A DNA stretch of 59,521 bases from Burkholderiales bacterium (GTDB lineage: Bacteria; Pseudomonadota; Gammaproteobacteria; Burkholderiales; JBEEJL01). The stretch lies in assembly GCA_049698095.1 (NCBI GenBank), contig JBAVXA010000037.1:1-59521 (forward strand), in the 5' to 3' direction. The position numbers were made by a program, and so were the translations under genes. Under the pieces are notes generated by a model. It was given only the letters and a program-made list of their open reading frames with translations, did not search any database and was not told where the DNA came from. Shown here in pieces: positions 34,089 through 55,991 of this stretch; position 1 is the stretch's first letter; every line of letters begins with the position of its first letter.

Positions 34089-34892
34089 ATGTTTTCGAAT
34101 GCCACGATTTCATCAGCACACAGCACGACCGCTACTCCCTTACGTAACGCACGAAGCAAAAACGACGCCGCGCCAGTGGCGCCGAATCCCGAATTGACGA
34201 CAAAATGCTCAAATTGCCATATGCGGCAGATTTGTCTGCCGCCAGATCTTTCCGCCTCTGAGCAGGAACAGCTTGACTCGCTGGTAACTATACACAAACG
34301 GATTGCCAAGGGAGAGTCGCTGTACCGTGAAACGGAGAAATTCGACTCCCTTTATGCAGTTCGCAGCGGTTTTTTCAAAACCACCGTGCTGATTGCAGAT
34401 GGACGCGATCAGGTCACCGGTTTTCATATGGCAGGCGATCTTATGGGGTTGGACGGATTAAGCAGCGGCAGCCATTCCTGCGATGCCGTGGCGTTAGAAG
34501 ATTCCGAAGTATGCGTGATTCCGTTCCGCCAGTACGAAAAATTGAGCCGTAAGGTCGAATCGCTGCACCAGCACCTGTATAAAATGTTGAGCCGCGAAAT
34601 CGTGCGCGATTACAGCATGATGTTGCTGCTCGGAACCATGCGCGCTGAGGAGCGTCTGGCGGCCTTTTTGCTCAATCTCGCCGAGCGCTTTACCGCTCGA
34701 GGCTATTCGCCGCGCGAATTTAATCTGCGCATGACGCGCGAAGAGATCGGCAGTTATCTTGGTCTCAAGCTCGAAACGGTCAGTCGCATGTTTTCCAAAT
34801 TTCATGACGAGGGGCTGGTCAATGCGCAACAGAAAAATATCAACATCCTGGATGCGGCCAAGCTACAGAAAGTCATTGGCGATTGTCATTGA
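34089..34892 (+). CDS. fnr: FNR/ANR-type oxygen-sensing Crp-family transcription regulator
   Basis: N-terminal C-x2-C-x5-C (KCSNCHMRQIC) plus a fourth Cys in EVCVIPF, which are the [4Fe-4S] ligands. cNMP-like barrel. HTH with the FNR-specific E--SR (GLKLETVSRMFSKF). Confidence 0.9.
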   Translation: MFSNATISSAHSTTATPLRNARSKNDAAPVAPNPELTTKCSNCHMRQICLPPDLSASEQEQLDSLVTIHKRIAKGESLYRETEKFDSLYAVRSGFFKTTVLIADGRDQVTGFHMAGDLMGLDGLSSGSHSCDAVALEDSEVCVIPFRQYEKLSRKVESLHQHLYKMLSREIVRDYSMMLLLGTMRAEERLAAFLLNLAERFTARGYSPREFNLRMTREEIGSYLGLKLETVSRMFSKFHDEGLVNAQQKNINILDAAKLQKVIGDCH

Positions 34893-43114: not shown

Positions 43115-43540
43115 TCAGCTTCTTTCGCGCTGCGCATCGCGGTTAGCCTGCAGCTCACGTTGCAATGCCATGACTTCCCGCCGAAGCTCGCGGATATCTT
43201 TGTGTAGTTCCTGCTCGAGACTCTTTTCGTCCTGTCCGACGAACATGGCCGCTATCGCTGCGGTTGCCACGGAAAGTATGCTGAAACCGAGCAGGACCAT
43301 GATGACTGCAAACAGACGGGACAAGAATGTCGTCGGAACAAAGTCGCCGTAACCCACTGTTGCGCCGGTCGTGAACGCGAGCCAAAGCCCGTCGACATAA
43401 GTCCCGACCGTCGGCTCCAGCAGATAAAATCCCAGCCCGGCAAAAGCCCAGGTGATGAGGCCGAAAGCGAATATCGCCACCGTGCGTGAGTGTAGCTTGT
43501 CTTTGAGATTCATTCGCAACATGTTATTGCTAACGGACAT
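43115..43540 (-). CDS. Two-TM potassium channel with C-terminal coiled coil
   Basis: K+ selectivity filter TTGATVGYGD between two TM helices. The charged helical tail (EQELHKDIRELRREVMALQRELQANRD) suggests tetramerisation or gating. Confidence 0.85.
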   Translation of the reverse strand: MSVSNNMLRMNLKDKLHSRTVAIFAFGLITWAFAGLGFYLLEPTVGTYVDGLWLAFTTGATVGYGDFVPTTFLSRLFAVIMVLLGFSILSVATAAIAAMFVGQDEKSLEQELHKDIRELRREVMALQRELQANRDAQRERS

Positions 43541-43598
43541 TTGCTTTGAATTTCTTTACGTTTAGACGTCGCGGGAGAAAGCGCAAAATGCCATGCAT

Positions 43599-43967
43599 TT
43601 ATCCCAGGGGCTTACTTTTTTTCCACAAGCCAACGGCAAGCGGGCTGAGGAAGGTCACTGCGTAATACAGATACACGTCCAGTTTATAGTATCCATCCGG
43701 CGGCTGGAACAATTTGACCAGGAACAGGTAGTCGAAAACAATCGCTATCGCCGTTCAAACGGCCGCCAGCTGCAAGTAGTATTGAAAGCCATTCGCCTTC
43801 ACTTTCCTGAGCAGCACCCAAAAAGTTATTATTATTCCTATTGGCATAATTATCCAACCAATCACCGCTGGAGAAACAACAAAGAAAAAAATGATCCCAA
43901 GCAAGTAGCCGATAAGCCAGAGGGCTATTCCCCAACCAAACGCATCTCGCCAAAATTGTCTGCTCAC
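43599..43967 (-). pseudogene. Membrane-protein gene interrupted by an in-frame TGA (codon 71)
   Basis: A GTG-start 70-aa ORF (43758-43967) ends at TGA (43755-43757). The same frame then continues without any start codon for 51 more hydrophobic-pattern codons (TAIAIVFDYLFLVKLFQPPDGYYKLDVYLYYAVTFLSPLAVGLWKKSKPLG) to TAA at 43599. Confidence 0.5.
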
Positions 43968-44010
43968 GCGAACCTATATCCCTGATTGACTACATGGATT
44001 TAGAATCAAG

Positions 44011-44289
44011 TCATGGCTTCTTCATTATTTCATCAATCTTCTTTTTCTCCCATTCAGATCCAAACCTGCCGCCAAAACCGAACGTACCAACCGCCTGGGC
44101 GACAATCGCTATTCCCCAGCCAAATACGACCCACAGAAACCACCAAGGCCCGCCGCTTGAAAGATTGATCAGAAAAAGCATGGAGATCACCAGCAGGTAA
44201 ATCGTCAGGTGAATATAAAAGTCCTTGATTTTTGCCACTTGCCGTTTCGCGGCCAGATATTTCTCTTCCTGTTCCATGTTTCTCTCCAT
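44011..44289 (-). CDS. 2TM-domain small membrane protein
   Basis: An amphipathic N-terminus (AKRQVAKIKDFYIHL) followed by two TM helices matches the '2TM domain' family pattern. Confidence 0.7.
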   Translation of the reverse strand: MERNMEQEEKYLAAKRQVAKIKDFYIHLTIYLLVISMLFLINLSSGGPWWFLWVVFGWGIAIVAQAVGTFGFGGRFGSEWEKKKIDEIMKKP

Positions 44290-44346
44290 ATGCCCAAAGT
44301 CTGCAAATTTCGTTGAACTATTTCACGGTTCTCGCTCCGAGAATTT

Positions 44347-45159
44347 TTACGCATGACGCCGGTAAATCAGGTAATACACCAATGCCACCATGACACTGCC
44401 ACCGACAATATTGCCTAAGGTGACGGGCAACAGATTTTGCGCGAAGCCGAGCCAGCTCAGTTCCGCGCCGGATGCTCCGTATCCCGCACCCTGAAGCAAA
44501 ATACCGAGGGGAACAAAGAACATATTGGCGACGCTATGTTCGAAGCCGGCGGCGACAAAGGCAGAGATCGGAAATATCACCGCAAGGATTTTGTCGGTGA
44601 CAGTATGGCCGGCAAGGCTCAACCACACGGCCATACATACAAGCGCGTTGCATAGGACGCCTTTGAAAAACGCCTCCGCAAACGGCATAGCGGTTTTGGT
44701 AGCTGCAATTTTTACGTATTGCCCGCCGACTCCTCCGCCAGCCATATCGGCATGGTGAGACCAGTAGACCAGCAGTGCAAGACCGATTGCCCCGGCCGCG
44801 TTGGAAATATAAACCAGCCCCCAATTGCGCAGGACTTCTACAGTGGAAATTTTTCCGTCGGCCCATGCCATCACCAACATGTTATTGCCGGTGAATAATT
44901 CCGCGCCGGCCACGACAACCAGCACCAGACCGAGTGAAAATGTCAGCCCCATCAACAATCGCTGTAGGGCAAACCCAAGCGAGGCATCGCTGGAAACCAG
45001 AGTCGAAAATATTGCGCCGAAACCGATAAATGCACCCGCCAGGATGCCGAGAAGGATCAACGGAACCAGCGGCAAGTGCGCCTTGGCTACGCCTACAGTT
45101 TCGACCCGCTCGGCAATTTGCGCTGGAGAGTAAGCATCGAATCCAAATAATTCGGGCAT
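44347..45159 (-). CDS. Formate/nitrite transporter (FNT) family channel
   Basis: 270 aa, six TMs. FNT hallmarks (AGAELFTGNN, GFEHSVANMF, LGNIVGG). Confidence 0.9.
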   Translation of the reverse strand: MPELFGFDAYSPAQIAERVETVGVAKAHLPLVPLILLGILAGAFIGFGAIFSTLVSSDASLGFALQRLLMGLTFSLGLVLVVVAGAELFTGNNMLVMAWADGKISTVEVLRNWGLVYISNAAGAIGLALLVYWSHHADMAGGGVGGQYVKIAATKTAMPFAEAFFKGVLCNALVCMAVWLSLAGHTVTDKILAVIFPISAFVAAGFEHSVANMFFVPLGILLQGAGYGASGAELSWLGFAQNLLPVTLGNIVGGSVMVALVYYLIYRRHA

Positions 45160-45165
45160 ATGGAG

Positions 45166-45615
45166 CTATCTGCGCGATTGCATTTCACGGCGCTGCTCTT
45201 TCAGCGTGAGTTTCGATATTTCGGTGAGTTCCAGCGCCAGCTCTCCTATCAGGTCGTCCACGGTCACAATCCCGACAAGGCTGCCGGCGACATTGACAAC
45301 CGGCATCCGGCGGATTCCTTTCAGGCACATCAGGCGTAGCGTATCATCGCGTTCGTCCAATTCGTCCGCCGTCAACAGGTTGCCAACCAGAATATCACCA
45401 AGGGTGATGACCTTTGGATCAAGGCCCATCGCCACGACTTCAACCACGATGTCGCGGTCGGTCACAATGCCGACGGGAAGACGCTCCCCGTCAACAGTGT
45501 CGATGACAACCAAGTCACCCACATGCTGGTGACGCATGAGGTCGGAGGCTTCGGCAATCGTGGTGTCGCGCGTAGCGAACACCACATTGCGGTTGCACAG
45601 ACTGCCTATCGGCAT
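45166..45615 (-). CDS. CBS-pair domain protein
   Basis: Two CBS repeats (VGDLVVID...GIVTDRDIV and IRRMPVVN...GIVTVDDLI). No other domain. Lies 6 nt upstream of the FNT gene. Confidence 0.9.
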   Translation of the reverse strand: MPIGSLCNRNVVFATRDTTIAEASDLMRHQHVGDLVVIDTVDGERLPVGIVTDRDIVVEVVAMGLDPKVITLGDILVGNLLTADELDERDDTLRLMCLKGIRRMPVVNVAGSLVGIVTVDDLIGELALELTEISKLTLKEQRREMQSRR

Positions 45616-45669
45616 GCTAACGACTCCTTGGTTGAATTGGCAGACAAAAATTATGCCGACATTTTCCCG

Positions 45670-46008
45670 TCAAATATCGGATTCGGCGACATCATCTCCA
45701 CCTTCATTCAGCAAATTATCCAGATCCTCGCTCCCATCAGCAACACCGCCGTCTTCCTCTGCAGCTTGCAAATTTTGCCGCTTCGCGTCGGAGAGTGCCG
45801 TCAGGGGCGTGTGGCGTTCCGCAGGATCAAACGGCGCGGTGAACTTGTCCTCGTCGGCACCTTGCGGATCAACCGCATTCCTCGCTCTGGCGCGCTGGCG
45901 GACTGACGGCTTACGCGCCGCATTCGCATCGGAAGGTTTCGATGTTTTTGCCCCCCGGGCGAGTCTTGTTCCCGAGTGTGCAATGTGCTTGTCAATGGTT
46001 CCTGGCAT
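45670..46008 (-). CDS. Hypothetical low-complexity protein (basic N-half, acidic C-half)
   Basis: AGGAG RBS 8 nt before ATG 46008. 112 aa, predicted disordered. First gene after a perfect FNR box with a TATAAT -10. Confidence 0.6.
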   Translation of the reverse strand: MPGTIDKHIAHSGTRLARGAKTSKPSDANAARKPSVRQRARARNAVDPQGADEDKFTAPFDPAERHTPLTALSDAKRQNLQAAEEDGGVADGSEDLDNLLNEGGDDVAESDI

Positions 46009-46146
46009 GCCTGGCTCCTGATCGAAATCGGGAAGACCTGCTTCTGACGTGCATCACCGATACTATTGCAGGGCGTCGCTTTCGCCAACCCAATCAGAAA
46101 CAAATCGTTCTCAAAGATAATTATATGAGGCTGCATTGCAGGAATA

Positions 46147-46160
46147 TTGATCTATATCAA
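46147..46160 (-). promoter_or_regulatory. Perfect FNR/ANR box with consensus -10
   Basis: TTGATctatATCAA (10/10). On the minus strand TATAAT (46125-46120) begins 21 nt past the box, placing the box centre near -41.5. Confidence 0.7.
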
Positions 46161-46179
46161 TCAAACCGGATTGCGCATT

Positions 46180-47988
46180 TTATTGTATCGAAGAGGGACA
46201 GCAGGCGGATTCAGCGTCCGTGTTTGCTGGCCGCAACACCGCCCCGCGCACTGAATTCGGTCGATAGGCGGTACAGCCCTTGAGGCCGAGCGTATACGCA
46301 AGGTCGAATACGGTATGAAAATCCGCAAACTCCGTCGCCGGCGGGATATAGACGGTTTTTGAAATGGCATTGTCGACAAAACGCTGCAATGCCGCCTGCA
46401 TGGAAAGCTGCGCCGCCGGGCTGATATGGTCAGCAGTCATAAATGCTGACGGCAATGGTGCGGCTGAGCCGTGCATCCGGCTGTATAAGTCGCTGGCATA
46501 ATCAGTCATCCTTGCGCTTCTGGCGCTGCCATCCGATTGAACGATATCGCGCCGGTAGTCAAAGGCGAATACCGGCTCCAGGCCGCTGGAAACGTTATTG
46601 GCCAACAGGCTTATCGTACCGGTGGGCGCGATGGCGATGAGATGGCTGTTGCGAATTCCCTGAGCAGCTATGCCGTCGGAAATATCCTGCGGCAGTGCGC
46701 GGATGAATTCACCCTGCAGATATTTTGCCGTGTCGAAACACCCGAATGCCCCCTTCTCTTTTGCCAACGCAATCGACGCGCGGTAGGCGCTATGGCAAAT
46801 CGTTTGCATGACCGCCTCCGCCTGAATTATCGACTCGGCGGAGCCGTAAATCTGTCCGAGCATAATCAGTGCATCGGCGAGGCCGGTGATGCCGAGGCCG
46901 ATGCGCCGCGAAGCGATCGCGGTTTCCGCCTGCTGCGGCAGCGGAAACTTAGACAGATCGTAAACGTTATCGAGCATGCGCACGGCGATGGCGGCGGTAT
47001 CGGCAATGGCGCCAAGATCCATTCGTGCAGTCGGGGTAAACGGCTCCTGCACAAACTGCGTCAGGTTGATCGAGCCGAGGTCGCATGCGCCGTAAGGCGG
47101 CAGGGGAATCTCGCCACAAGGGTTGGTCGCGCTGATTTGCTCGCAATAACGCAGATTATTTGCACGTTGCACGCGGTCGATGAAGAGGACGCCCGGCTCA
47201 GAAAAATTGTAGTTGGCACGTAGCAGTTTCTGCCATAGCGCGCGTGCACCGACGTGGTGAAACACTTTGCACTGGACCGGCGCGGCGTATCCCGGCCATT
47301 CGCGCATGACAGTTTCGCCGCTGCCGACGTCCGGCTTACCCGCCAGCGGAAATATCAGCGGCCAGTTTTCGTCACGTTGTACCGCCTGCATGAATGCATC
47401 GCTTACCAGTACTGACAGATTGAAGTTTCGAAGCGCGCCGGTTTCGTGTTTTGCGTCAATGAACAGGCCAATATCCGGATGGTCGCAGCGGAGGGTCGCC
47501 ATCATGGCGCCGCGGCGCGCGCCGGTGGAAAGAATGGTCCCGCACATGCTGTCCCAGATATGCATGAAAGATACCGGCCCTGAAGCGACAGAACCCACGC
47601 TCGCCGCAAGCGTGCCGGCCGGACGCAGAGTGGAAAAATCATAGCCGACTCCGCCGCCCTGCTGCATGGTGATGGCGCCCTGCTTGAGTGCGTCAAAAAT
47701 GCCGTCCATTGAATCGTCGATAGTGCCCATGACAAAACAATTGAACAGCGTGACACGGCGCCCGGTACCGGCGCCGGCCTGGATGCGTCCGCCAGGCAGG
47801 AAGCAAAAGTTTTCCAGCGCGCCGTAGAAACGCGCCTCCCATTCCGCCGAATGCATGGGCTCAACCGATGCCAGCGCGTGCGCTACTCTGCGCCAGGTAT
47901 CGGCAATCGTGTTATCGGTCTCACGCCAGCGGTACTTGCTGTCCCATATCTGTTCGGAAACCTCGGAGGAAAAATGACGTGCGCGCAT
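46180..47988 (-). CDS. nrdJ: Class II (adenosylcobalamin-dependent) ribonucleotide reductase
   Basis: 602 aa. Segments LPGGRIQAGAGT, LFNCFV, QGGGVGYDFSTLRP, GARRGAMMATL and NPCGEIPLPPYGACDLGSINL, with the catalytic Cys/Asn/Glu context. No class I R2-interaction tail. Confidence 0.9.
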   Translation of the reverse strand: MRARHFSSEVSEQIWDSKYRWRETDNTIADTWRRVAHALASVEPMHSAEWEARFYGALENFCFLPGGRIQAGAGTGRRVTLFNCFVMGTIDDSMDGIFDALKQGAITMQQGGGVGYDFSTLRPAGTLAASVGSVASGPVSFMHIWDSMCGTILSTGARRGAMMATLRCDHPDIGLFIDAKHETGALRNFNLSVLVSDAFMQAVQRDENWPLIFPLAGKPDVGSGETVMREWPGYAAPVQCKVFHHVGARALWQKLLRANYNFSEPGVLFIDRVQRANNLRYCEQISATNPCGEIPLPPYGACDLGSINLTQFVQEPFTPTARMDLGAIADTAAIAVRMLDNVYDLSKFPLPQQAETAIASRRIGLGITGLADALIMLGQIYGSAESIIQAEAVMQTICHSAYRASIALAKEKGAFGCFDTAKYLQGEFIRALPQDISDGIAAQGIRNSHLIAIAPTGTISLLANNVSSGLEPVFAFDYRRDIVQSDGSARSARMTDYASDLYSRMHGSAAPLPSAFMTADHISPAAQLSMQAALQRFVDNAISKTVYIPPATEFADFHTVFDLAYTLGLKGCTAYRPNSVRGAVLRPANTDAESACCPSSIQ

Positions 47989-48022
47989 GCGATCAACGAA
48001 TGTGTTCCATGAACTGATTTTT

Positions 48023-48043
48023 TCAGTATCAAATTAATACTGA
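48023..48043. promoter_or_regulatory. Inverted repeat overlapping the predicted nrdJ -10 region
   Basis: TCAGTAT-caaatta-ATACTGA (7-bp arms). It lies between the FNR box and the nrdJ ATG. Operator-like, but the binding factor is unknown. Confidence 0.3.
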
Positions 48044-48051
48044 TGGAAACA

Positions 48052-48065
48052 TTGATATGCATCAA
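48052..48065. promoter_or_regulatory. Perfect FNR/ANR box between divergent nrdJ and the PRTase gene
   Basis: TTGATatgcATCAA (10/10). The box centre is 70 nt from the nrdJ ATG (47988). GATACT begins 21 nt past the box toward nrdJ, and cAGAAT begins 21 nt past it toward 48170. Confidence 0.7.
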
Positions 48066-48150
48066 CTCATGCATGCCTACTCGGCTCAGAATGAAAAAAT
48101 GAATCTCCTCTGTAGACGAGCGTCGCTCGTTCGTAAGTTTACTTATATTC

Positions 48151-48169
48151 ATAACTATTTGATTATATT
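48151..48169 (+). repeat. AT-rich 19-mer repeat, exact copy 2
   Basis: ATAACTATTTGATTATATT directly abuts the ATG at 48170. No Shine-Dalgarno sequence is present. Confidence 0.8.
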
Positions 48170-48814
48170 ATGATTTTTTCGAACAGGAATCAAGCCGCCG
48201 CGCTGCTCGCACAACGTTTGCAGGAATATGGCGGCGGCCCGCTGGTTCTAGCCATCCCGCGCGGGGCAGTGCCGATGGGCAAAATCATTGCCGATGCATT
48301 GGGCGGCGAGCTTGATGTCGTGCTCACGCGCAAACTGCGCGCACCGGGAAATCCGGAATATGCAATCGGCGCAATCGATGAGACTGGCTGGGCGTACATC
48401 TCGGAATTCGCGTCATCCGCAGGTGCCACGCCCGAATATATTGAGGAAGAAAAAAAGACTCAACTCGATACCATTCGCCGTCGCCGCAAACAATATACGC
48501 CAATACATAAAGCCGCCGATCCTGAAGGCCGCACGGTAATAGTGGTCGACGATGGGCTGGCCACAGGCGCTACCATGATCGCGGCCCTGCATGCATTGCG
48601 TGCGCGCGCTCCAAAAATACTGATTTGTGCCGTGCCCGTGGCGCATCCGGAAACCTTGAAGAAAGTGGCGCTCTATGCGGATAAAGTCATTTGTCTGCAT
48701 AGCCCTCCGGATTTTTATGCCGTCGGCCAGTTTTACCGCGATTTTCCCCAGGTTGAGGACGATGAAGTGATCGGAATCTTAGCCAGTACAGGCAGCGACA
48801 AATCCAGCCCCTGA
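48170..48814 (+). CDS. Phosphoribosyltransferase-family protein
   Basis: N-terminus FSNRNQAAALLAQRL...VLAIPRGAVPMG and PRPP loop VIVVDDGLATGATM. This is the same architecture as the PRTase half of PRTase/hydrolase pairs. Confidence 0.85.
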   Translation: MIFSNRNQAAALLAQRLQEYGGGPLVLAIPRGAVPMGKIIADALGGELDVVLTRKLRAPGNPEYAIGAIDETGWAYISEFASSAGATPEYIEEEKKTQLDTIRRRRKQYTPIHKAADPEGRTVIVVDDGLATGATMIAALHALRARAPKILICAVPVAHPETLKKVALYADKVICLHSPPDFYAVGQFYRDFPQVEDDEVIGILASTGSDKSSP

Positions 48815-48869
48815 AAATTCCGAAGGCCCGTGTCGCAAATTGAAACTCTTGGCGTTTTTCTACGCTCGT

Positions 48870-48883
48870 TTGATCTAGGTCAA
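48870..48883 (+). promoter_or_regulatory. FNR-type box upstream of the second usp
   Basis: TTGATctagGTCAA (9/10). GATAAT/TAATCT lies 19-21 nt downstream. The box centre is 70 nt from the ATG at 48947. Confidence 0.6.
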
Positions 48884-48946
48884 ATATCGATAAAAGCCTT
48901 GCGATAATCTGAAAACGTCGTAATTCATTCACTAAAGGAGATAAAA

Positions 48947-49384
48947 ATGTTTAAGACAATCCTGATTCCGACTGACGGCTCGGCGCTTTCAGAAAATGCC
49001 GCAAAAAAATCACTGCAATTGGCCAAATCGCTGAACGCAAAAGCGGTGGGATTCTATTCTATTGAGCCGTTTCACATCCTGGCCGCCAATACGGAAATGA
49101 TGAGTGATACGCGCGAAGTTTATGAACGGGATTCGAAATTGCGCGCAAGCTCCTCGTTAGCAAAAATTGAAGATTTCGCGCGTTCAGCGGGTGTTGCCTG
49201 TGAATGCGTCAGCGGGCAGGACGATAGCCCCTGGCAAGGCATCATCAAGGCCGCGCAATCCAAAGGTTGTGACCTTATAGCCATGGCTTCGCACGGTCGC
49301 ACCGGAATGCAGGGCATTTTGATCGGCAGTCAGGCCAACCACGTCTTGACGCATTCGAAAATCCCGGTTCTGATTTTTAGATAA
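48947..49384 (+). CDS. Universal stress protein (UspA family)
   Basis: MFKTILIPTDGS N-terminus and C-terminal SHGRTGMQGILIGSQANHVLTHSKIPVLIFR. GGAG RBS. Confidence 0.9.
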   Translation: MFKTILIPTDGSALSENAAKKSLQLAKSLNAKAVGFYSIEPFHILAANTEMMSDTREVYERDSKLRASSSLAKIEDFARSAGVACECVSGQDDSPWQGIIKAAQSKGCDLIAMASHGRTGMQGILIGSQANHVLTHSKIPVLIFR

Positions 49385-49497
49385 CCCGCCTATCGACACA
49401 CGGCCGGTCACCAGCTGGCGCGATTCGGGTGAATTCAGGCGCAGTTGCCTGCTTGATAAACGGCATGAGCGCACCCTTTTTTCTCGCCTCAATAAAT

Positions 49498-49528
49498 AAA
49501 AAGATCCCGAAACGATTGGGATCTTTTT
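49498..49528. terminator. Bidirectional rho-independent terminator
   Basis: AAAAAGATCCC-gaaacgatt-GGGATCTTTTT. The stem is flanked by an A-run and a T-run, between convergent usp (+) and the hydrolase gene (-). Confidence 0.8.
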
Positions 49529-49529
49529 A

Positions 49530-50192
49530 TTACAACCTGCCTTTAAACCATTCCGCTGCCAACCGCGCCGCCTCTTCCAATGTTCCCGGCTCCTCGAACA
49601 GGTGAGTTGCTCCCGGGATAATCTGCATTTGTTTTTCGCAGCTTAGATATTCATAGGCGATCTGGTTAAGCTGAATGACCTCGGCGTCATCGCCGCCTAC
49701 AATCAGCATCGTAGGCGCGAGCACTTTGCGTAACGAATCCTCGCCGGCTAGATCAGGGCGACCGCCGCGCGATACGACGGCACCGATTTCTCCACCGAAC
49801 TGCGCCGCGGCGCGCAATGCCGCCGCCGCACCGGTACTGGCGCCGAAATAACCGATTCGCATCCCGGCGGTCCGACTGGCGGTAGCCAGCCAGTAAGTGG
49901 CGCCGATGAGCCTTGACGTTAACAATGCGATATCGAAGCGCGTCGCGTAGTTTGCGTCTTCCGCGGGCGTCAGCAAATCGATCAACAGGCTGCCGATACG
50001 AGCCGCGTGCAGCACATCGGCGACAAAGATATTGCGCGGGCTGAAGCGGGAACTGCCGCTGCCGTGGGCAAACAGAACGACTGCCTTTGCGCCAACCGGC
50101 AGTGTCAGCGTGCCCTTCAATTGGACGTTCCCAGTCGAAATGACGACTGTGGAAGCGTGCGAAAAATCCTGAACGTCGCCCGGCGGGTTCAT
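49530..50192 (-). CDS. Dienelactone-hydrolase-type alpha/beta hydrolase
   Basis: VVLFAHGSGSSRFSPRN, nucleophile elbow GASTGAAAAL, and C-terminal GATHLFEEPG (His). Confidence 0.85.
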   Translation of the reverse strand: MNPPGDVQDFSHASTVVISTGNVQLKGTLTLPVGAKAVVLFAHGSGSSRFSPRNIFVADVLHAARIGSLLIDLLTPAEDANYATRFDIALLTSRLIGATYWLATASRTAGMRIGYFGASTGAAAALRAAAQFGGEIGAVVSRGGRPDLAGEDSLRKVLAPTMLIVGGDDAEVIQLNQIAYEYLSCEKQMQIIPGATHLFEEPGTLEEAARLAAEWFKGRL

Positions 50193-50211
50193 CGCGTTTT
50201 GCAGCTGTCGC

Positions 50212-50700
50212 TTATTTTCGCGGGCTCTCGCCTGCGCTTTTCTGTTCCTGCATTTCGCGTTCGATCATTTGCTGCATCATCGATTGCATCATGTCCATGC
50301 GTTTTTCCATCATCTCATGGTGTTTCATCATGCCGCCCTGCATCATACCGCCTGGCTTCATCGCGCCTTCTTTCATTCCGCCGCCCATCATTCCTCCGCC
50401 CATGCAACCGCCGCCGCCGCTCATGCCGCACATCATGCCCATGCCATCGCGCATGGCCTGCATGTGTTCCTGCATGAGTTTCTGCTTCTCGGCCGGGTCG
50501 GACGTGGCGCGAATTTTTTCCATCTGCATTTGCATTTTTTTCATGTGGTCCTGCATGGCAGATTGCGCCGCGTCCGCGCTGCCAGGCGCAGTTGCTGCTG
50601 CGGCGCCGTGTCCGGCATGGCTTCCGGCGGATGGCGGGGCGGCACAGCCAAATTGTAGAAGTGCAACGGCCAGACCAGACAATTTCAGTAGATTTTTCAT
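50212..50700 (-). CDS. Methionine/glycine-rich lipoprotein
   Basis: Signal peptide with lipobox LLQFGC. The mature part is dominated by M-x-M / MM motifs plus His and two Cys (GMGMMCGMSGGGGCMGGGMMGGGM). By my count there are 31 Met in 162 residues. GAGGA RBS. Confidence 0.7.
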   Translation of the reverse strand: MKNLLKLSGLAVALLQFGCAAPPSAGSHAGHGAAAATAPGSADAAQSAMQDHMKKMQMQMEKIRATSDPAEKQKLMQEHMQAMRDGMGMMCGMSGGGGCMGGGMMGGGMKEGAMKPGGMMQGGMMKHHEMMEKRMDMMQSMMQQMIEREMQEQKSAGESPRK

Positions 50701-50757
50701 CTCATATCCTCAGCAAAACTCGTTCGGACAATTTACTTCCTGAGGTGGATTTGTTTG

Positions 50758-50771
50758 TTGATACAGATCAA
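50758..50771 (-). promoter_or_regulatory. Perfect FNR/ANR box upstream of the Met-rich lipoprotein gene
   Basis: TTGATacagATCAA (10/10). The box centre is 64.5 nt from the ATG at 50700. A TAAATT hexamer begins 22 nt past the box on the minus strand. Confidence 0.7.
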
Positions 50772-50809
50772 AAACTGTTGATTGAGCATTTGCCCGGTGT
50801 GACTGAGGT

Positions 50810-53401
50810 TTATGGTTTGAACGGGTTGAAGCGTCGGGCTAACTCAAACCAAAGCAAGCCGGCGACCGCCGCGGCGAGACAAAGGGCGATGCCCTCAGGC
50901 GGCATGCTCGCAAAGCGGAATATCGACTGCATCTGGGGCACATAGATCGCCAGTGCAAGAGCGAAGAGGGTTCCGCTGACTATCCACCAAAGCGCCGGGT
51001 TGGGTGTGCGCAGTACGGTGATAAAGCTTTGATGCCGCGCCAGATTAGTGAGTATCAGCCCGATATTGCCGAACACGATTGTCGTAAAGGCATAGGTTCT
51101 TGCCAGTTCATCGGACATTCCGGTTTGCAGCACGCCCCAGTACAGGAGCCAAATCGCGGCAAGCACGCCTGCCCCTTGAAGCAGGCTGGTCAACACAATA
51201 TCGGCATTCAGTAAATGATCGTCCGTCCGGCGCGGCGCCCGCTGCATGGCGTTTTTTTCTGCAGGCTCAGCCTCAAATGCAATTGAACAGGCCGGGTCGA
51301 TTATGAATTCCAGAAATACAATATGAACCGGATAAAAAACCAGTGGCCAGCCGAACAATAACGGGACCAGCGCCATGCCGGCCGTCGGCACGTGCACCGC
51401 GATGATGTAGCACATCGCTTTCTGGATATTGTCAAAAATTTGCCTGCCCAATTTGACGGCATGCACAATCGAGGCGAAATCATCGCGCAGCAGCACCAGT
51501 GCCGCCGCTTCACGCGCCACATCGGTGCCGCGCTGCCCCATCGCGACGCCAATATGCGCGGCTTTGAGCGCCGGCGCGTCGTTAACCCCATCGCCGGTCA
51601 TCGCGACGATTTCCCCTGCGCTTTTGAATGCCTGCACCAGTCGCAATTTTTGTTCCGGCATGATGCGTGCAAAAATATTCACGCTGCCAATGCGCGCCTG
51701 CAATTCAGAATCGCTCATTTGCTGTAATTCGGCACCGGTAATCGCATGCTCATTGGGATGCAGGCCAATCTGGCGCGCGATGGCCTGCGCGGTGACGGGG
51801 TAATCGCCGGTAATCATCACCGTGCGGATGCCGGCCTGATAACACTCCTTCAACGCCGGCACCACGCTGGGCCGCACCGGATCTGCCAGCCCGATCAAGC
51901 CGACAAAACTGAAATCGAAGCCGTGCGGCGTCGGAGGCCACGCGCCGCTTTGGAAGTTGGCCATGGCAGACGCTTTTGCTACCGCCAATACACGCAGGCC
52001 GTTACTCGCCATGCGCTGCACCTCTGCTTCAAGATGTTCCCATTGCCGGGGATCCAGATGGCATAACCCTGCAATCGCTTCCGGCGCACCTTTGCTCGCG
52101 ATAATATATAACTCATTGTTTTTATTATATTTTGCGTGCCAGACGTGAGTGCGCGCGAGCAGTTGCGTTGTCAGGGAATACTCGTGTACCAATTCACGCT
52201 GCGTATGTTGCTGTGGGAAATCATGCAGATGGTCTTTGCCCAATGCATGAAATGCTTTTTCCATCGGGTCGAACGGCTCGGCCGCGCTGGATAGGATGCT
52301 GTACTCGACTAACGCGTGAAATTCTTCCGGCAGGGTTCGTTTTGCCAATCCGTCGATCAGGCAGCCTTTACCGTTCGCGTACAACTCGCGCACCGCCATC
52401 TGGTTTTGCGTGATGGTGCCGGTTTTATCCACACAAAGCACGGTTGCCGAACCCAATGTTTCAATGGCAGGCATGCGGCGCGTGAGGACGTGCTGTTTTG
52501 AAATGCGCCAGGCGCCGAGCGCCATGAATACCGTCAGCACCACGGGAAACTCTTCCGGTAGATTTGCCATCGCCAGGGTAATGCCGGCGAGCAGACCGCC
52601 AATCCAGTCCTGCCGCGTGATGCCGTAAAGGGCCACCACCGCGGCGCATAACGTCAGGCCGATTAGCGCGAACACCATCACTGCGCGCCGCGTCTCCAGC
52701 TGCATCGGGCTGGCCTCCTGCGTCACCGACTGCAGCGCCTTGCCTATTTTGCCCATTTCCGTTGCCAGGCCGGTGGCCAGCACCTGCGCCGTAGCGTGGC
52801 CTTGCACCGCGAGGGTGCCCGAATATACGAACGGCAGGTCATCGCCCCCGGGCCGCTGCATCGGCTGCGCAACACTGCCGGCGATTTTTGCCACCGCCAC
52901 GGACTCCCCGGTCAACAATGATTCATCGGTCTTGAAATCATTGCAGGAAAGCAGGACCGCGTCGGCTGGTACCCGGTCGCCTTCTTTTAGCAGCATGATG
53001 TCGCCGCGCACCACGTCGCGTCCGGCAATGCGGCGCGCTTCACCGTCGCGCAGCACAAGCGCGCGCGGGCTTGACAGGTCGCGCAAGGCTTCCAGCGCGC
53101 GCTCGGTCTTGCGCTCCTGAAAAAACGTGATGCCGAGCATAACCAGCACCGAGACCATCAACACCAGCGCCTCGCGCACATCCCCCAGAAAGAGATAAAT
53201 GGTCGCCGCAGCGATCAGCAGCAGGAACATCGGTTCGCGCACGACCTCCAGCGCGATGCGCCAGAGGCTGCGCGGCCTGGACGAGGGCAACTCATTTGCA
53301 CCGTCCTTGTGCAAGCGTGCAGCCGCCTGCGTTGCACTGAGCCCGGTCGCGGGGTCGGTGGCGATACTGGCTGGTTCCTGTGTAGCAGGCTCGTTATCCA
53401 T
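50810..53401 (-). CDS. P-type cation-transporting ATPase (P2-type, Ca2+/PacL-like)
   Basis: TGES, DKTGTITQN, MITGD, GDGVNDAPALK. 863 aa with 10-TM architecture. Ion specificity cannot be determined from the sequence alone. Confidence 0.9.
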   Translation of the reverse strand: MDNEPATQEPASIATDPATGLSATQAAARLHKDGANELPSSRPRSLWRIALEVVREPMFLLLIAAATIYLFLGDVREALVLMVSVLVMLGITFFQERKTERALEALRDLSSPRALVLRDGEARRIAGRDVVRGDIMLLKEGDRVPADAVLLSCNDFKTDESLLTGESVAVAKIAGSVAQPMQRPGGDDLPFVYSGTLAVQGHATAQVLATGLATEMGKIGKALQSVTQEASPMQLETRRAVMVFALIGLTLCAAVVALYGITRQDWIGGLLAGITLAMANLPEEFPVVLTVFMALGAWRISKQHVLTRRMPAIETLGSATVLCVDKTGTITQNQMAVRELYANGKGCLIDGLAKRTLPEEFHALVEYSILSSAAEPFDPMEKAFHALGKDHLHDFPQQHTQRELVHEYSLTTQLLARTHVWHAKYNKNNELYIIASKGAPEAIAGLCHLDPRQWEHLEAEVQRMASNGLRVLAVAKASAMANFQSGAWPPTPHGFDFSFVGLIGLADPVRPSVVPALKECYQAGIRTVMITGDYPVTAQAIARQIGLHPNEHAITGAELQQMSDSELQARIGSVNIFARIMPEQKLRLVQAFKSAGEIVAMTGDGVNDAPALKAAHIGVAMGQRGTDVAREAAALVLLRDDFASIVHAVKLGRQIFDNIQKAMCYIIAVHVPTAGMALVPLLFGWPLVFYPVHIVFLEFIIDPACSIAFEAEPAEKNAMQRAPRRTDDHLLNADIVLTSLLQGAGVLAAIWLLYWGVLQTGMSDELARTYAFTTIVFGNIGLILTNLARHQSFITVLRTPNPALWWIVSGTLFALALAIYVPQMQSIFRFASMPPEGIALCLAAAVAGLLWFELARRFNPFKP

Positions 53402-55991
53402 GGGTTCGCCGTGCGTAATATTTATAGAAGCCGCGTTTGACCAATTCGACCAGCGCCAGATAAATCACCACCATTCCAGCTAAAATCAGGAAAAACTTCA
53501 ATGGCGGCGCGACGAAGCCGAAATAGGCGCCAAGCGGCGAAAACGGCAACCATGCCGCCACCACGACCACCAGGCAGGAAGTCGCCACCAGCACCGGACT
53601 CGGCAGATTGACCAGCGGATTGCCGCGCGTACGGATGACGAATATGACCAGGGTTTGTGTCGCCAGCGATTCGATAAACCAACCGGTCTGAAACAATGCT
53701 TCATTCGCTTCAAGCACCACCAGCATCACATAAAAGGTCAGGAAATCGAAAAGCGAACTGACCGGGCCGATGGTCCACATGAAATTGCGGATGAATGCCA
53801 TGTCCCATGCCTGCGGCCGTTTCACTTCTTCCTCGTCCACCCGGTCGAGGGGAATCGCCGCCTCGGATAAATCGTACAGCATATTATTGAGCAGTATCTG
53901 CGTCGGCAGCATGGGTAAAAAAGGCAGCAGCAACGACGCCCCCGCCATGCTGAACATATTGCCGAAGTTGGAACTTGTCCCCATCAGGATATATTTGCGG
54001 ATATTGCCGAATGTCTCACGGCCGATTATCACCCCTTCATGCAACACATTCAGGTCGCGTTTAAGCAATATCATGTCCGCCGACTCTTTCGCCACATCCA
54101 CTGCGCTTTCGACGGACAATCCGACGTCGGCAGAGTGCAAAGCCGGTGCGTCGTTGATGCCGTCACCAAGATAACCGACTGTGTGCCCGCGCTGCTTCAG
54201 CGCCAGGATGATGCGGTTTTTCTGCGCAGGATTGACGCGGCAGAATAAATTGGTCTGTTCCACGCGCGCGCGCAATGCCGTGTCGCCCATATGCTCCAGC
54301 TCGTCGCCGCGCAGCACACCGGTAATGGCGATGCCGAGCTGTGCGCAGATATGCTGGGTGACCAATTCATTGTCGCCGGTGACGATCTTTACCATAACCC
54401 CACTTGCACCCAATGCCGCCATCGCTTTGGCGGCATCTTCCTTGGGCGGATCGAGAAACGCCGCGAGCCCGGCGAAAACCAGCTCGGTTTCGTCGTTGAC
54501 GACTGCGTGCGGGTAATCCAGCGCAACCTTTTTCCATGCGATACCGAGCACGCGAAAGCCGTCGCGCGCCAGGGAATCACACTGGCTCTGCAATCGTGCG
54601 CGCGTATCGCTGTCGACAATGCCGGTTTTGCCGTCAATCCCCGTTTCGTATTGCGCCGACAGGCGCAAAATATCCTCCGGCGCGCCTTTTACCACCAGTT
54701 GGCGCGAAGCGCCGTTCTCCACCAACACCGACACGCGCCGGCGTTCGAAGTCGAACGGCACTTCATCGATTTTTTTCCACTCGGAAACATCGATTTCCTC
54801 GTGCGCCAGAATCGCGTCGTCGAGAGGGCTCCTCACGCCGGTTTCGAAAAAACTGTTGATATAGGCAAGCTGCAGCACCCGCTCGCTTTCATGGCCCGTG
54901 GCGTCGACATGGCGCTCAAGTCGGATTTTTGCCTCGGTCAGTGTGCCGGTCTTGTCCGTACACAATACGTCCATGCCACCGAGATTTTCAATGGCGGACA
55001 GGCGTTTTACGATGACGTTTCGGCGCGCCATGCGCATCGCGCCGCGCGACAAGGTAACCGATATCACCATCGGTAACAGTTCCGGGGTAAGGCCGACTGC
55101 CAGCGCGATGGCAAACAAAAATGATTCCAGTAACGGTTTGTGCGACATAGTGTTCACCAAAAGCACAAACAGCACGAGGAACACGGTAAGGCGCATGATC
55201 AGCATGCCGAATTGTCGCGTGCCGATTTCAAATGAGGTCGGCGGCGGCGGCGCTTCCAGGGTTTCGGCAATTTCGCCCATCGCCGTGTTGGTGCCCGTGC
55301 GGCAGACCAGAATGCTCGCCGTGCCGCTCACAACCGAGGTGCCCATGAAGACGGCGGTCGCCGACTCCAGCATGGCTCCTGCCTGGTCGCCCGAATCGCC
55401 GCAATGCTTTTCCGCCGGGTAAGCCTCGCCGGTCAACAATGCCTGTTTTACAAACAAGTCGCGCGACTCGATCAACCTGCCGTCTGCGGGAATCAGGTCG
55501 CCCGCCGCCACCACCGCCACATCGCCCGGCACCACGTCGGCGACCGGCACTTCGCACTCGACACCGTCGCGCAATACGCTGACCTTCAGCGCAACCGATT
55601 GACGTAATTTGTCCGCCGCCCGCGCCGCCCGCGTTTCCTGAATAAAATCGATGGTTACCGACATGACAATCATGGCGGTGATAATCACGAAGCTGGTTAT
55701 TTCTCCGGTCAGAGCTGATACAAAACTGGCAGCGAGCAGAATAAGGACCAGAGGATTGCGAAACCGGCGCAGGAATTCGAGCCACAACAGGCGTTTCGGC
55801 TCGTCGCGGAAAATGTTTGGCCCCCAGCGGGTCAATCGAACCGCAGCTTGCGCACCCGGCAATCCCCGCGGCGCGCTTTGCAGAACGTCGAACAGTCTAT
55901 CGAGCGGTATGCGCCACCATTCGCTCAGGGTCGATTCTTGGGCGCGTTGGGCGTCATTGTTGCGCGCAAGGTTGTTAATCGGATTGGCCAC
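53394..55991 (-). CDS. mgtA: Magnesium-translocating P-type ATPase (MgtA type)
   Basis: Long collinear similarity to E. coli MgtA as I recall it. Shared segments are LTGEAYPAEK, GLTPELLPMVISVTL, DKTGTLTEAKI, IDEVPFDFERRRVSV, GDGINDAPAL and SSNFGNMFSMAGASLLLPFLPMLP. Overlaps the downstream ATPase gene by 8 nt. Confidence 0.9.
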   Translation of the reverse strand: MANPINNLARNNDAQRAQESTLSEWWRIPLDRLFDVLQSAPRGLPGAQAAVRLTRWGPNIFRDEPKRLLWLEFLRRFRNPLVLILLAASFVSALTGEITSFVIITAMIVMSVTIDFIQETRAARAADKLRQSVALKVSVLRDGVECEVPVADVVPGDVAVVAAGDLIPADGRLIESRDLFVKQALLTGEAYPAEKHCGDSGDQAGAMLESATAVFMGTSVVSGTASILVCRTGTNTAMGEIAETLEAPPPPTSFEIGTRQFGMLIMRLTVFLVLFVLLVNTMSHKPLLESFLFAIALAVGLTPELLPMVISVTLSRGAMRMARRNVIVKRLSAIENLGGMDVLCTDKTGTLTEAKIRLERHVDATGHESERVLQLAYINSFFETGVRSPLDDAILAHEEIDVSEWKKIDEVPFDFERRRVSVLVENGASRQLVVKGAPEDILRLSAQYETGIDGKTGIVDSDTRARLQSQCDSLARDGFRVLGIAWKKVALDYPHAVVNDETELVFAGLAAFLDPPKEDAAKAMAALGASGVMVKIVTGDNELVTQHICAQLGIAITGVLRGDELEHMGDTALRARVEQTNLFCRVNPAQKNRIILALKQRGHTVGYLGDGINDAPALHSADVGLSVESAVDVAKESADMILLKRDLNVLHEGVIIGRETFGNIRKYILMGTSSNFGNMFSMAGASLLLPFLPMLPTQILLNNMLYDLSEAAIPLDRVDEEEVKRPQAWDMAFIRNFMWTIGPVSSLFDFLTFYVMLVVLEANEALFQTGWFIESLATQTLVIFVIRTRGNPLVNLPSPVLVATSCLVVVVAAWLPFSPLGAYFGFVAPPLKFFLILAGMVVIYLALVELVKRGFYKYYARRTHG

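Follow-up and report, generated by a model that had tools for sequence, protein, structure and literature searches.

Methionine-rich periplasmic binders of copper or silver are a known kind of protein. Among the described systems with which a new protein of this sort may be compared, MrpX has 44% charged residues, is co-transcribed with yedY1Z1 under SigF/NrsF and works with YedY1Z1/MsrPQ (PMC4436054), and for E. coli CusF the oxidation of methionine residues and their repair by MsrPQ have been documented (PMC9302797). Copper itself depends on the oxygen supply: Cu+ is the prevailing form under anaerobic conditions, in which E. coli accumulates up to 20-fold more of the metal (PMC12510620). 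Here we describe a gene for an extremely methionine-rich (Met-rich) protein at positions 50212–50700 of the minus strand of contig JBAVXA010000037.1 from a Burkholderiales bacterium (assembly GCA_049698095.1); the contig was analysed over its whole length of 59,521 nucleotides, which is called the window below. The reading that we favour, at slightly better than even confidence, is that the gene encodes a periplasmic protein, induced by FNR and probably lipid-anchored, that buffers Cu(I)/Ag(I) in anoxia, as suggested by the composition of the protein and by the genes that neighbour its relatives. We found no Pfam or NCBIfam model, solved relative or paper for its family, and the unusual points are the FNR wiring within a dormancy-like island and the repeated loss of the gene in congeners.

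The methionine-rich protein and its family

The gene and the parts of its product are as follows.

50212–50700, minus strand: gene for the Met-rich protein, an open reading frame (ORF) of 162 amino acids (composition count)
50644–50700, minus strand: signal peptide MKNLLKLSGLAVALLQFGC with a non-canonical lipobox and Cys19 (sequence reading)
50581–50643, minus strand: predicted disordered tether of Ala, Pro, Ser, Gly and His, residues 20–40, including SHAGHG (AlphaFold2 local confidence, pLDDT, below 50 in both models)
50422–50580, minus strand: predicted helical hairpin, residues 41–65 and 69–93, with the turn at the conserved SDP cap (block-mean pLDDT up to 93)
50335–50421, minus strand: predicted disordered Met/Gly/Cys loop, residues 94–122 (pLDDT below 50)
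50233–50334, minus strand: predicted C-terminal amphipathic helix, residues 123–156, with the motif MMEKRMDMMQSMMQQM (block-mean pLDDT about 85–88)

The product contains 31 Met, 25 Gly, 20 Ala, 14 Gln, 6 His and 3 Cys residues; the translation bears out the length, the methionine count and all peptide strings given in a preliminary description of this DNA. With a Met fraction of 19.1%, the protein ranks first among the 9291 six-frame ORFs of at least 80 amino acids in the 2.8-Mb genome, for which the median is 2.0% and the runner-up reaches 12.0%; about 20% of its residues are charged and 15% are Gly. Two His-rich ORFs of the plus strand (50269–50658 and 50291–50743) were rejected as true genes, because the substitution pattern suits the minus frame and the homologues correspond to the product of that frame. 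Contig C115 of the same genome (10233–10727, minus strand) encodes a second exported protein rich in Met and His; it has 164 amino acids, 10% of them Met, and its sequence (GMGHHGMHGAGMHQNMM, later LNLTGEQ) resembles a protein of the LTXXQ (Spy/CpxP/ZraP) type.

A protein 95% identical to that of the window is found in the Logan contigs (P0001) within the same gene order, namely MgtA, P2 ATPase, Met-rich protein, dienelactone-hydrolase-like (DLH-like) protein, Usp and phosphoribosyltransferase (PRTase), with NrdJ, CBS and FNT further on. The two Met-rich genes differ by 18 synonymous and 8 non-synonymous substitutions, giving rates of 0.225 (dS) and 0.021 (dN) and a dN/dS ratio of 0.09, and the FNR box described below is identical in both. 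The gene in the window is intact and under purifying selection.

The best relatives of the protein match at E-values of 3e-87, 2e-43 and 4e-27. At E ≤ 1e-3, a word-index search retrieved 326 proteins and a profile search of 1.84 billion representatives 2716 clusters, 1358 of them at E ≤ 1e-10. The family occurs mainly in Betaproteobacteria (Burkholderiales, Nitrosomonadales and Rhodocyclales) and Gammaproteobacteria, with few members from other groups; among its carriers are the cultivable Duganella violaceipulchra, Variovorax sp. and Dechloromonas sp. A34. Within the order to which the window belongs, 11 of 41 sampled genomes hold a member, at times as a tandem pair. Alignments of 28 (A1) and 89 (A2) members reveal a shared architecture: a signal peptide, a helix that closes with (T/S)xDP, the E(R/K)QxLMQEH motif, a linker rich in Met and Gly in which one or two Cys are frequent, and MMEKRMDMMQMMMEQM. 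The family motifs DPxERQxLMQEH, or more loosely DPxE(R/K)QxLMQEH, and MMEKRMDMMQMMMEQM are non-compositional, and all invariant or near-invariant residues of the family (D68, P69, E71, L75, H79, R134, M137, M138 and M141) are kept in the window protein. More variable features are a mature N-terminal HHP or HHT, present in 35 of the 89 aligned members, and at least one Cys beyond residue 40, present in 37 of them. By these motifs the protein is a member of a Met-rich helical family, and the similarity is not merely compositional.

Scans of the window protein against Pfam and NCBIfam and of 28 relatives against Pfam gave nothing significant, a PDB sequence search with the family profile gave no match below E 0.4, and a plasmid search yielded one partial match, to a hypothetical protein of Variovorax. 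Two database labels on family members are unsupported: 'CpxP/Spy' on P0002 (JGI), for which profile comparison fails, and 'DNA-binding protein YbaB' on P0120 (UniRef). The latter was probably assigned because the N-terminus of YbaB mimics helix 1 of the family, and such a look-alike (MKQAQQMQENMKKMQEQL) is seen in a YbaB-like ORF on contig C50 of this genome.

The neighbourhoods of 91 non-redundant family loci were compared by placing the family gene first, calling ORFs within 6 kb, clustering the neighbour ORFs and naming the commonest clusters by Pfam. A Cu/Ag marker was found within 6 kb in 56 of the 91 loci, many of the marker-free loci being short contigs. The neighbours were distributed as follows.

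P-type ATPase: 43 of 91 loci
AcrB-type RND pump: 15 of 91 loci
CusB-type adaptor: 12 of 91 loci
Outer-membrane factor (OEP): 11 of 91 loci
Multicopper oxidase: 10 of 91 loci
ICMT-like methyltransferase: 10 of 91 loci
CusS-like kinase: 9 of 91 loci
DUF302: 9 of 91 loci, at a median distance of 45 nucleotides
DUF2933: 5 of 91 loci
MerR: 5 of 91 loci

Thirty-eight of the ATPase genes encode CPx-type P1B ATPases and three the APC type, the cluster representative having YHS and HMBD domains; 44 of 46 ATPase genes share the strand of the family gene and 15 lie within 400 nucleotides of it. The small membrane proteins SHOCT and DUF5676 also recur near family genes. By our estimate, the chance of finding a P1B ATPase gene within 6 kb of a random gene would be roughly 1%. 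The preliminary description had named Met/His-rich Cu(I)/Ag(I) binders as one precedent for the protein, and this is supported at the level of the family, but not by the window itself, which has no such gene nearby. Directly upstream of Met-rich genes in copper islands (L049, L051, L056, L065 and L016 9050–9580) we observed a further family of ORFs of about 155–176 amino acids with one transmembrane segment, a CC pair, HHP, SPC, a C-terminal (Q/S)RLLI and no Pfam match.

Markers of a hypoxia island (Usp, DLH-like protein, PRTase, PEEFP-type ATPase, FNT, CBS, HSP20 and hemerythrin) occur in six of the 91 loci only, namely the window, L011, L013, L045, L072 and L089, and L072 and L089 have copper genes in addition. 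The earlier remark that the context of the gene is unusual thus holds when the family is taken as the standard. The tree built from 89 members pairs the window protein with that of L011 (SH-aLRT 93) and nests the two among copper-context members, and the hypoxia label changes on it at least three times; its support is weak, as is usual with short and biased sequences.

Export and predicted structure

Export of the Met-rich protein is well supported. The signal peptide ends in LLQFGC, which the preliminary description took for a lipobox. The Cys is present and is followed, both here and in the orthologue P0002 (64–65% identical), by an Ala/Pro/Ser/Gly tether typical of lipoproteins, and P0002 has the canonical LLAAC; but Gln at position –3 of the window protein breaks the PROSITE-type rule that we applied ([LVI][ASTVI][GAS]C closing the signal peptide). 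Taken together, these features make lipidation plausible.

AlphaFold2 was run with the 28-row and the 89-row alignment, and both predicted the same helices. The hairpin region carries DPxE(K/R)QxLMQEH with the near-invariant His79, Cys91 lies at the end of helix 2 just ahead of the loop, and Cys99 is inside the loop. The apolar residues of the three helices are almost only Met, the exceptions being I63, L75 and I146, and in helices 2 and 3 the Met and His residues are concentrated on a single face (permutation p = 0.013 and 0.028). Since Met is nearly the sole apolar residue, the core or the surface of the helices would consist of thioethers and include the conserved His79. A Foldseek search against the PDB gave no match below E 1.

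FNR box and gene neighbourhood

The following features surround the gene or bear on its transcription.

50758–50771, no strand assigned: perfect FNR box TTGATacagATCAA (TTGATN4ATCAA), its centre 64 nucleotides before the ATG
50730–50735, minus strand: putative –10 hexamer TAAATT, 22 nucleotides past the FNR box (sequence reading)
50707–50711, minus strand: putative Shine-Dalgarno sequence GAGGA, 6 nucleotides ahead of the ATG (sequence reading)
34089–34892, plus strand: fnr gene (translation with cluster ligands C40-x2-C43-x5-C49...C131 and an E-x2-SR recognition helix)
49530–50192, minus strand: gene for a dienelactone-hydrolase-type alpha/beta hydrolase of 220 amino acids (PDB 2o2g, E 1e-63)
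50810–53401, minus strand: P2-like P-type ATPase with PEEFP as the motif of transmembrane segment 4, directly upstream of the Met-rich gene (Pfam, NCBIfam)
53394–55991, minus strand: MgtA-type P-type ATPase (TIGR01524, 916 bits, above the cut-off)

The FNR box noted earlier is indeed perfect; it sits in the 109-nucleotide spacer ahead of the ATG and is one of four perfect boxes in the window, where 0.10 are expected, and of 24 in the genome. The position of TAAATT puts it at about –41.5, which is class II FNR geometry. The FNR encoded within the window is a genuine one as judged by its Cys cluster and E-x2-SR helix, and with the box, the –10 spacing and the fnr gene the locus has the predicted make-up of a class II FNR-activated promoter; transcription of the Met-rich gene would depend on FNR. 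Elsewhere in the family the box is perfect ahead of the L011 orthologue and has one mismatch each in the copper-context loci L089 and L019. A search of the minus strand from the ATPase gene through the Met-rich gene found neither a stand-alone sigma-70 promoter nor a terminator, and no terminator was found ahead of the hydrolase gene either; both read-through from the ATPase genes and co-transcription with the hydrolase gene are therefore possible, and the Met-rich gene is probably co-transcribed with the latter. An Rfam scan around the Met-rich gene returned zero RNA elements. Another contig of this genome, C121 (22.7 kb), holds 7 of the 24 perfect boxes along with apparent cbb3-oxidase-type genes and a gene for a CcoI/FixI-like P1B ATPase of 858 amino acids.

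Copper export in this organism also appears FNR-linked. On contig C257 (L107, 585–3473) a perfect FNR box is followed by genes for DUF5676, a Cu-type P1B ATPase (TIGR01511, above the cut-off at 601 bits), whose N-terminus is rich in His, and a SHOCT protein. This ATPase is 80.6% identical to a P1B ATPase of the congener G003, where a PRTase gene is followed by a one-mismatch FNR box and then by a 176-amino-acid ORF and genes for a second Met-rich paralogue, DUF5676, DUF2933, ICMT and the P1B ATPase; the whole array lies inside the same hypoxia island.

The gene neighbours of the window copy had been named correctly: 19 nucleotides separate the stop codon of the Met-rich gene from the start of the alpha/beta hydrolase gene, two P-type cation ATPases of the MgtA and P2-like types lie directly upstream, and neither a Cu-efflux gene nor msrPQ adjoins. 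The hydrolase matches the Pfam DLH model only weakly (E 1.6e-3, below the cut-off) but is truly of the dienelactone-hydrolase type, being clearly homologous to PDB 2o2g, a structural-genomics 'dienelactone hydrolase'. The proposed coupling of the Met-rich gene to this hydrolase gene holds for the window, for the 95%-identical relative and for one metagenomic orthologue, but is a local arrangement only. P2-like ATPases with PEEFP instead of PEGLP in transmembrane segment 4 are encoded in the window (50810–53401), in L011 (42–2408) and in L045 (6669–9347), and they score under every NCBIfam equivalog cut-off.

The region 43115–55991 of the window is an FNR island that resembles the mycobacterial DosR dormancy set. 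Its genes encode NrdJ (a B12-type ribonucleotide reductase), a PRTase, the DLH-type hydrolase, Usp, a CBS pair, an FNT channel and the P2-like ATPase, and HSP20 and OsmC are present in related loci. CtpF and HspX belong to the DosR set, and Rv0571c is a PRTase-hydrolase fusion. The dormancy genes listed in a review include Rv0570 (B12-dependent ribonucleotide reductase) and Rv0571c (PRTase) (PMC5309233).

In three genomes of the same genus (G002, G003 and G004) the P2 ATPase gene and the DLH-like gene are adjacent and an FNR or FNR-like box is kept, with a remnant of the Met-rich gene at the same site. G004 has an in-frame stub of 39 amino acids without a signal peptide (MNLGDEMRGKRMDMMQNMTPQMLEYPLQKDKAAAEAQRK); G003 has a signal-peptide stub of 37 amino acids that continues out of frame (...GGMMQQMLEHQKAAKTK); and G002 has an N-terminal stub of 51 amino acids ending in ...AMQEHMK, together with an inserted secreted ORF of 104 amino acids. 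The latter (L116; MNIRTILW...EEERQQIQADHHRQMQERAKQQGY...) lies between the FNR-like box and the stub and has no Pfam match. In the incomplete genomes G001 and G005 no match to the Met-rich gene was found. The decayed copies at one site show that the ancestor of the genus had the gene there and that it was lost repeatedly, and the FNR box kept before the hydrolase gene and a stub indicates that the FNR promoter serves the hydrolase gene too. Absence or a frameshift in close relatives had been put forward as an argument against a function of the ORF; the three congeners show just this, but the gene in the window is intact, with a dN/dS of 0.09.

Alternative roles and known systems

In the mechanism that we propose, low oxygen would lead FNR to switch on the Met-rich gene and the hydrolase gene downstream of it, both from the class II promoter of the former. 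The product would be exported and probably tethered by a lipid anchor, and its Met thioethers, His79 and loop cysteines would bind Cu(I), possibly also Ag(I), keeping the metal off periplasmic targets. The timing suits anoxia, when copper is mainly Cu(I) and accumulates to a greater extent, O2-dependent cuprous oxidation is limited and the Cys pair would more likely be reduced. We infer metal binding, with its stoichiometry, from the composition of the protein and the gene neighbours of its family, and the protein may either hand the metal on to a pump or only buffer it.

Several observations weigh against this reading. The window copy has no Cu/Ag gene within 6 kb, and the nearest pumps are of the MgtA and P2-like types, whose predicted ions are hard cations not bound by Met. 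The protein has no N-terminal HHP/HHT motif, the packing in its model is of low confidence (pTM 0.33–0.35, no better with the 89-sequence alignment), and literature searches found no paper on the family or on an FNR-controlled Met-rich protein. The positional orthologue is broken in three different ways in G002, G003 and G004, which implies that the function is dispensable or accessory in close relatives. Finally, association with gene neighbours cannot separate a metal binder from a protector against the damage caused by copper.

A bolder version of the buffer reading is tentative and, in our view, rather doubtful: the family would supply many Beta- and Gammaproteobacteria with the missing periplasmic acceptor and buffer of Cu(I) for CopA-type pumps, and in this lineage it would have been drawn into the FNR regulon as an oxygen-gated device made only in anoxia, in which reduced Cys91 and Cys99 would add thiolate ligands to the Met/His sites; anaerobic copper defence would then be part of a dormancy-like hypoxia programme. 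The family is large and adjoins copper pumps in many environmental Proteobacteria. Were its members to bind Cu(I), they would fill a gap in the handling of the metal after the pump in bacteria without CusF or SilE, and the FNR-wired copy would illustrate a copper defence adjusted to anoxic conditions, under which the metal is at its most toxic. The family also lends itself well to the study of helices with an all-methionine apolar face.

It is unlikely, but the best placed of the alternatives, that the protein is a sacrificial Met sink like MrpX, the second precedent in the preliminary description; it would absorb HOCl, H2O2 or Cu-catalysed reactive oxygen species, for example at re-oxygenation, and be recycled by a periplasmic methionine sulfoxide reductase. 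Its 19% Met is near the 20% of MrpX, the stress island around the gene includes Usp (OsmC and HSP20 are present in the related loci L011 and L013), and three molybdenum oxidoreductase genes are found elsewhere in the genome on other contigs. However, with these three as queries no molybdenum oxidoreductase was found in the 20-kb family loci or in the window, about 20% of the residues are charged against 44% in MrpX, and no NCBIfam or Pfam repeat model matches. The promoter would respond to lack of oxygen rather than to oxidants, through FNR and not SigF/NrsF; a mere sink would need neither a defined helical build nor conserved His, Glu and Arg; and the family context is copper, not chlorine or reactive oxygen species. 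On these grounds the MrpX precedent is not supported. The roles of binder and oxidant sink need not exclude each other, because both the oxidation of CusF and its repair are documented.

We judge it decidedly unlikely that the protein is a dedicated partner of P-type ATPases that docks at the periplasmic face to accept or gate the ion and is re-used here by the upstream PEEFP-type P2-like ATPase. P-type ATPases are the commonest neighbours (43 of 91 loci, with the strand and distance bias given above), and a PEEFP-type ATPase gene precedes the family gene in the window, L011 and L045, the L045 protein standing elsewhere in the tree, although a tree of such short sequences is weakly supported. 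Against such a partnership, many members lie beside RND pumps or oxidases without an ATPase, and the congeners hold the PEEFP ATPase with only a decayed Met-rich stub, which implies that the pump does not need the Met-rich protein.

A periplasmic holdase or chaperone, whose Met-lined helices would bind unfolded envelope proteins under hypoxia or metal stress in the manner of the Met-rich SRP54/Ffh groove, to which signal peptides bind, or of Spy/CpxP, is very unlikely. The amphipathic helices with Met faces, the general stress proteins encoded in the island, the JGI label of P0002 and weak Foldseek matches to Skp helices speak for it, but every Foldseek match has E >1, the hhalign probability is 0.2% each against Spy (E. 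coli, verified against the PDB) and a presumed E. coli CpxP sequence, Pfam LTXXQ is matched at E 0.67 only and in 2 of 28 members, and adjacency to Cu/Ag pumps would be left unexplained. That the gene is a low-complexity ORF on its way out, retained by chance and now functionless, is highly improbable, since the three different lesions at the same position in G002–G004 and the missing matches in the incomplete G001 and G005 are outweighed by a dN/dS of 0.09 over a dS of 0.225 with every family-invariant residue kept, by an intact promoter, Shine-Dalgarno sequence and signal peptide, and by the intact L011 orthologue (64–65% identity) with its conserved FNR box.

The Cu(I)/Ag(I) buffer that we favour can be set beside five known systems. 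SilE and PcoE, presumed metal sponges, are likewise small exported proteins of about 140–160 amino acids, partly disordered, with Met and His at helical i, i+3/4 spacing, and the family relatives are encoded beside Cu/Ag efflux genes as well. Homology to SilE was rejected (hhalign probability 0.5% for a SilE query 100% identical to annotated silE; no NCBIfam match), and the window protein differs in having much more Met, Gly runs, Cys, conserved acidic and basic residues and FNR instead of a metal sensor. CusF, a small beta-barrel, is comparable in its periplasmic location, in the HME-RND pump and P1B ATPase genes that accompany its gene and in having His and Met as likely ligands, and the Met-rich protein could similarly accept Cu(I) leaving a CopA-type pump. 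Its fold would be another, as both AlphaFold2 models predict helices only and no OB-type beta-barrel; CusF-type domains occur separately in some family loci.

CopM of Synechocystis (DUF305) is helical and periplasmic with a Met/His-lined interior and belongs to a copper-resistance locus. Membership in its family was rejected, there being no PF03713 match among the families listed and an hhalign probability of 4.6% that covers the signal peptide only, and DUF305 proteins are encoded as separate genes in the same family loci. The LTXXQ family (Spy/CpxP/ZraP) was rejected likewise on the 0.2% hhalign values against Spy and CpxP. MrpX of Azospira suillum, a betaproteobacterium of the Rhodocyclales type, is exported and has about 20% Met (PMC4436054), whereas the window protein has 15% Gly, about 20% charged residues, no Msr gene nearby and an FNR-type promoter. 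In CueO a flexible Met-rich segment recruits periplasmic Cu(I) (PMC12510620, PMC12041951); that segment is part of an enzyme, whereas the window protein stands alone without a catalytic domain. The Met-rich protein is a member of none of these systems, and by its way of working the closest to it are SilE/PcoE, CusF, CopM and the Met-rich arm of CueO.

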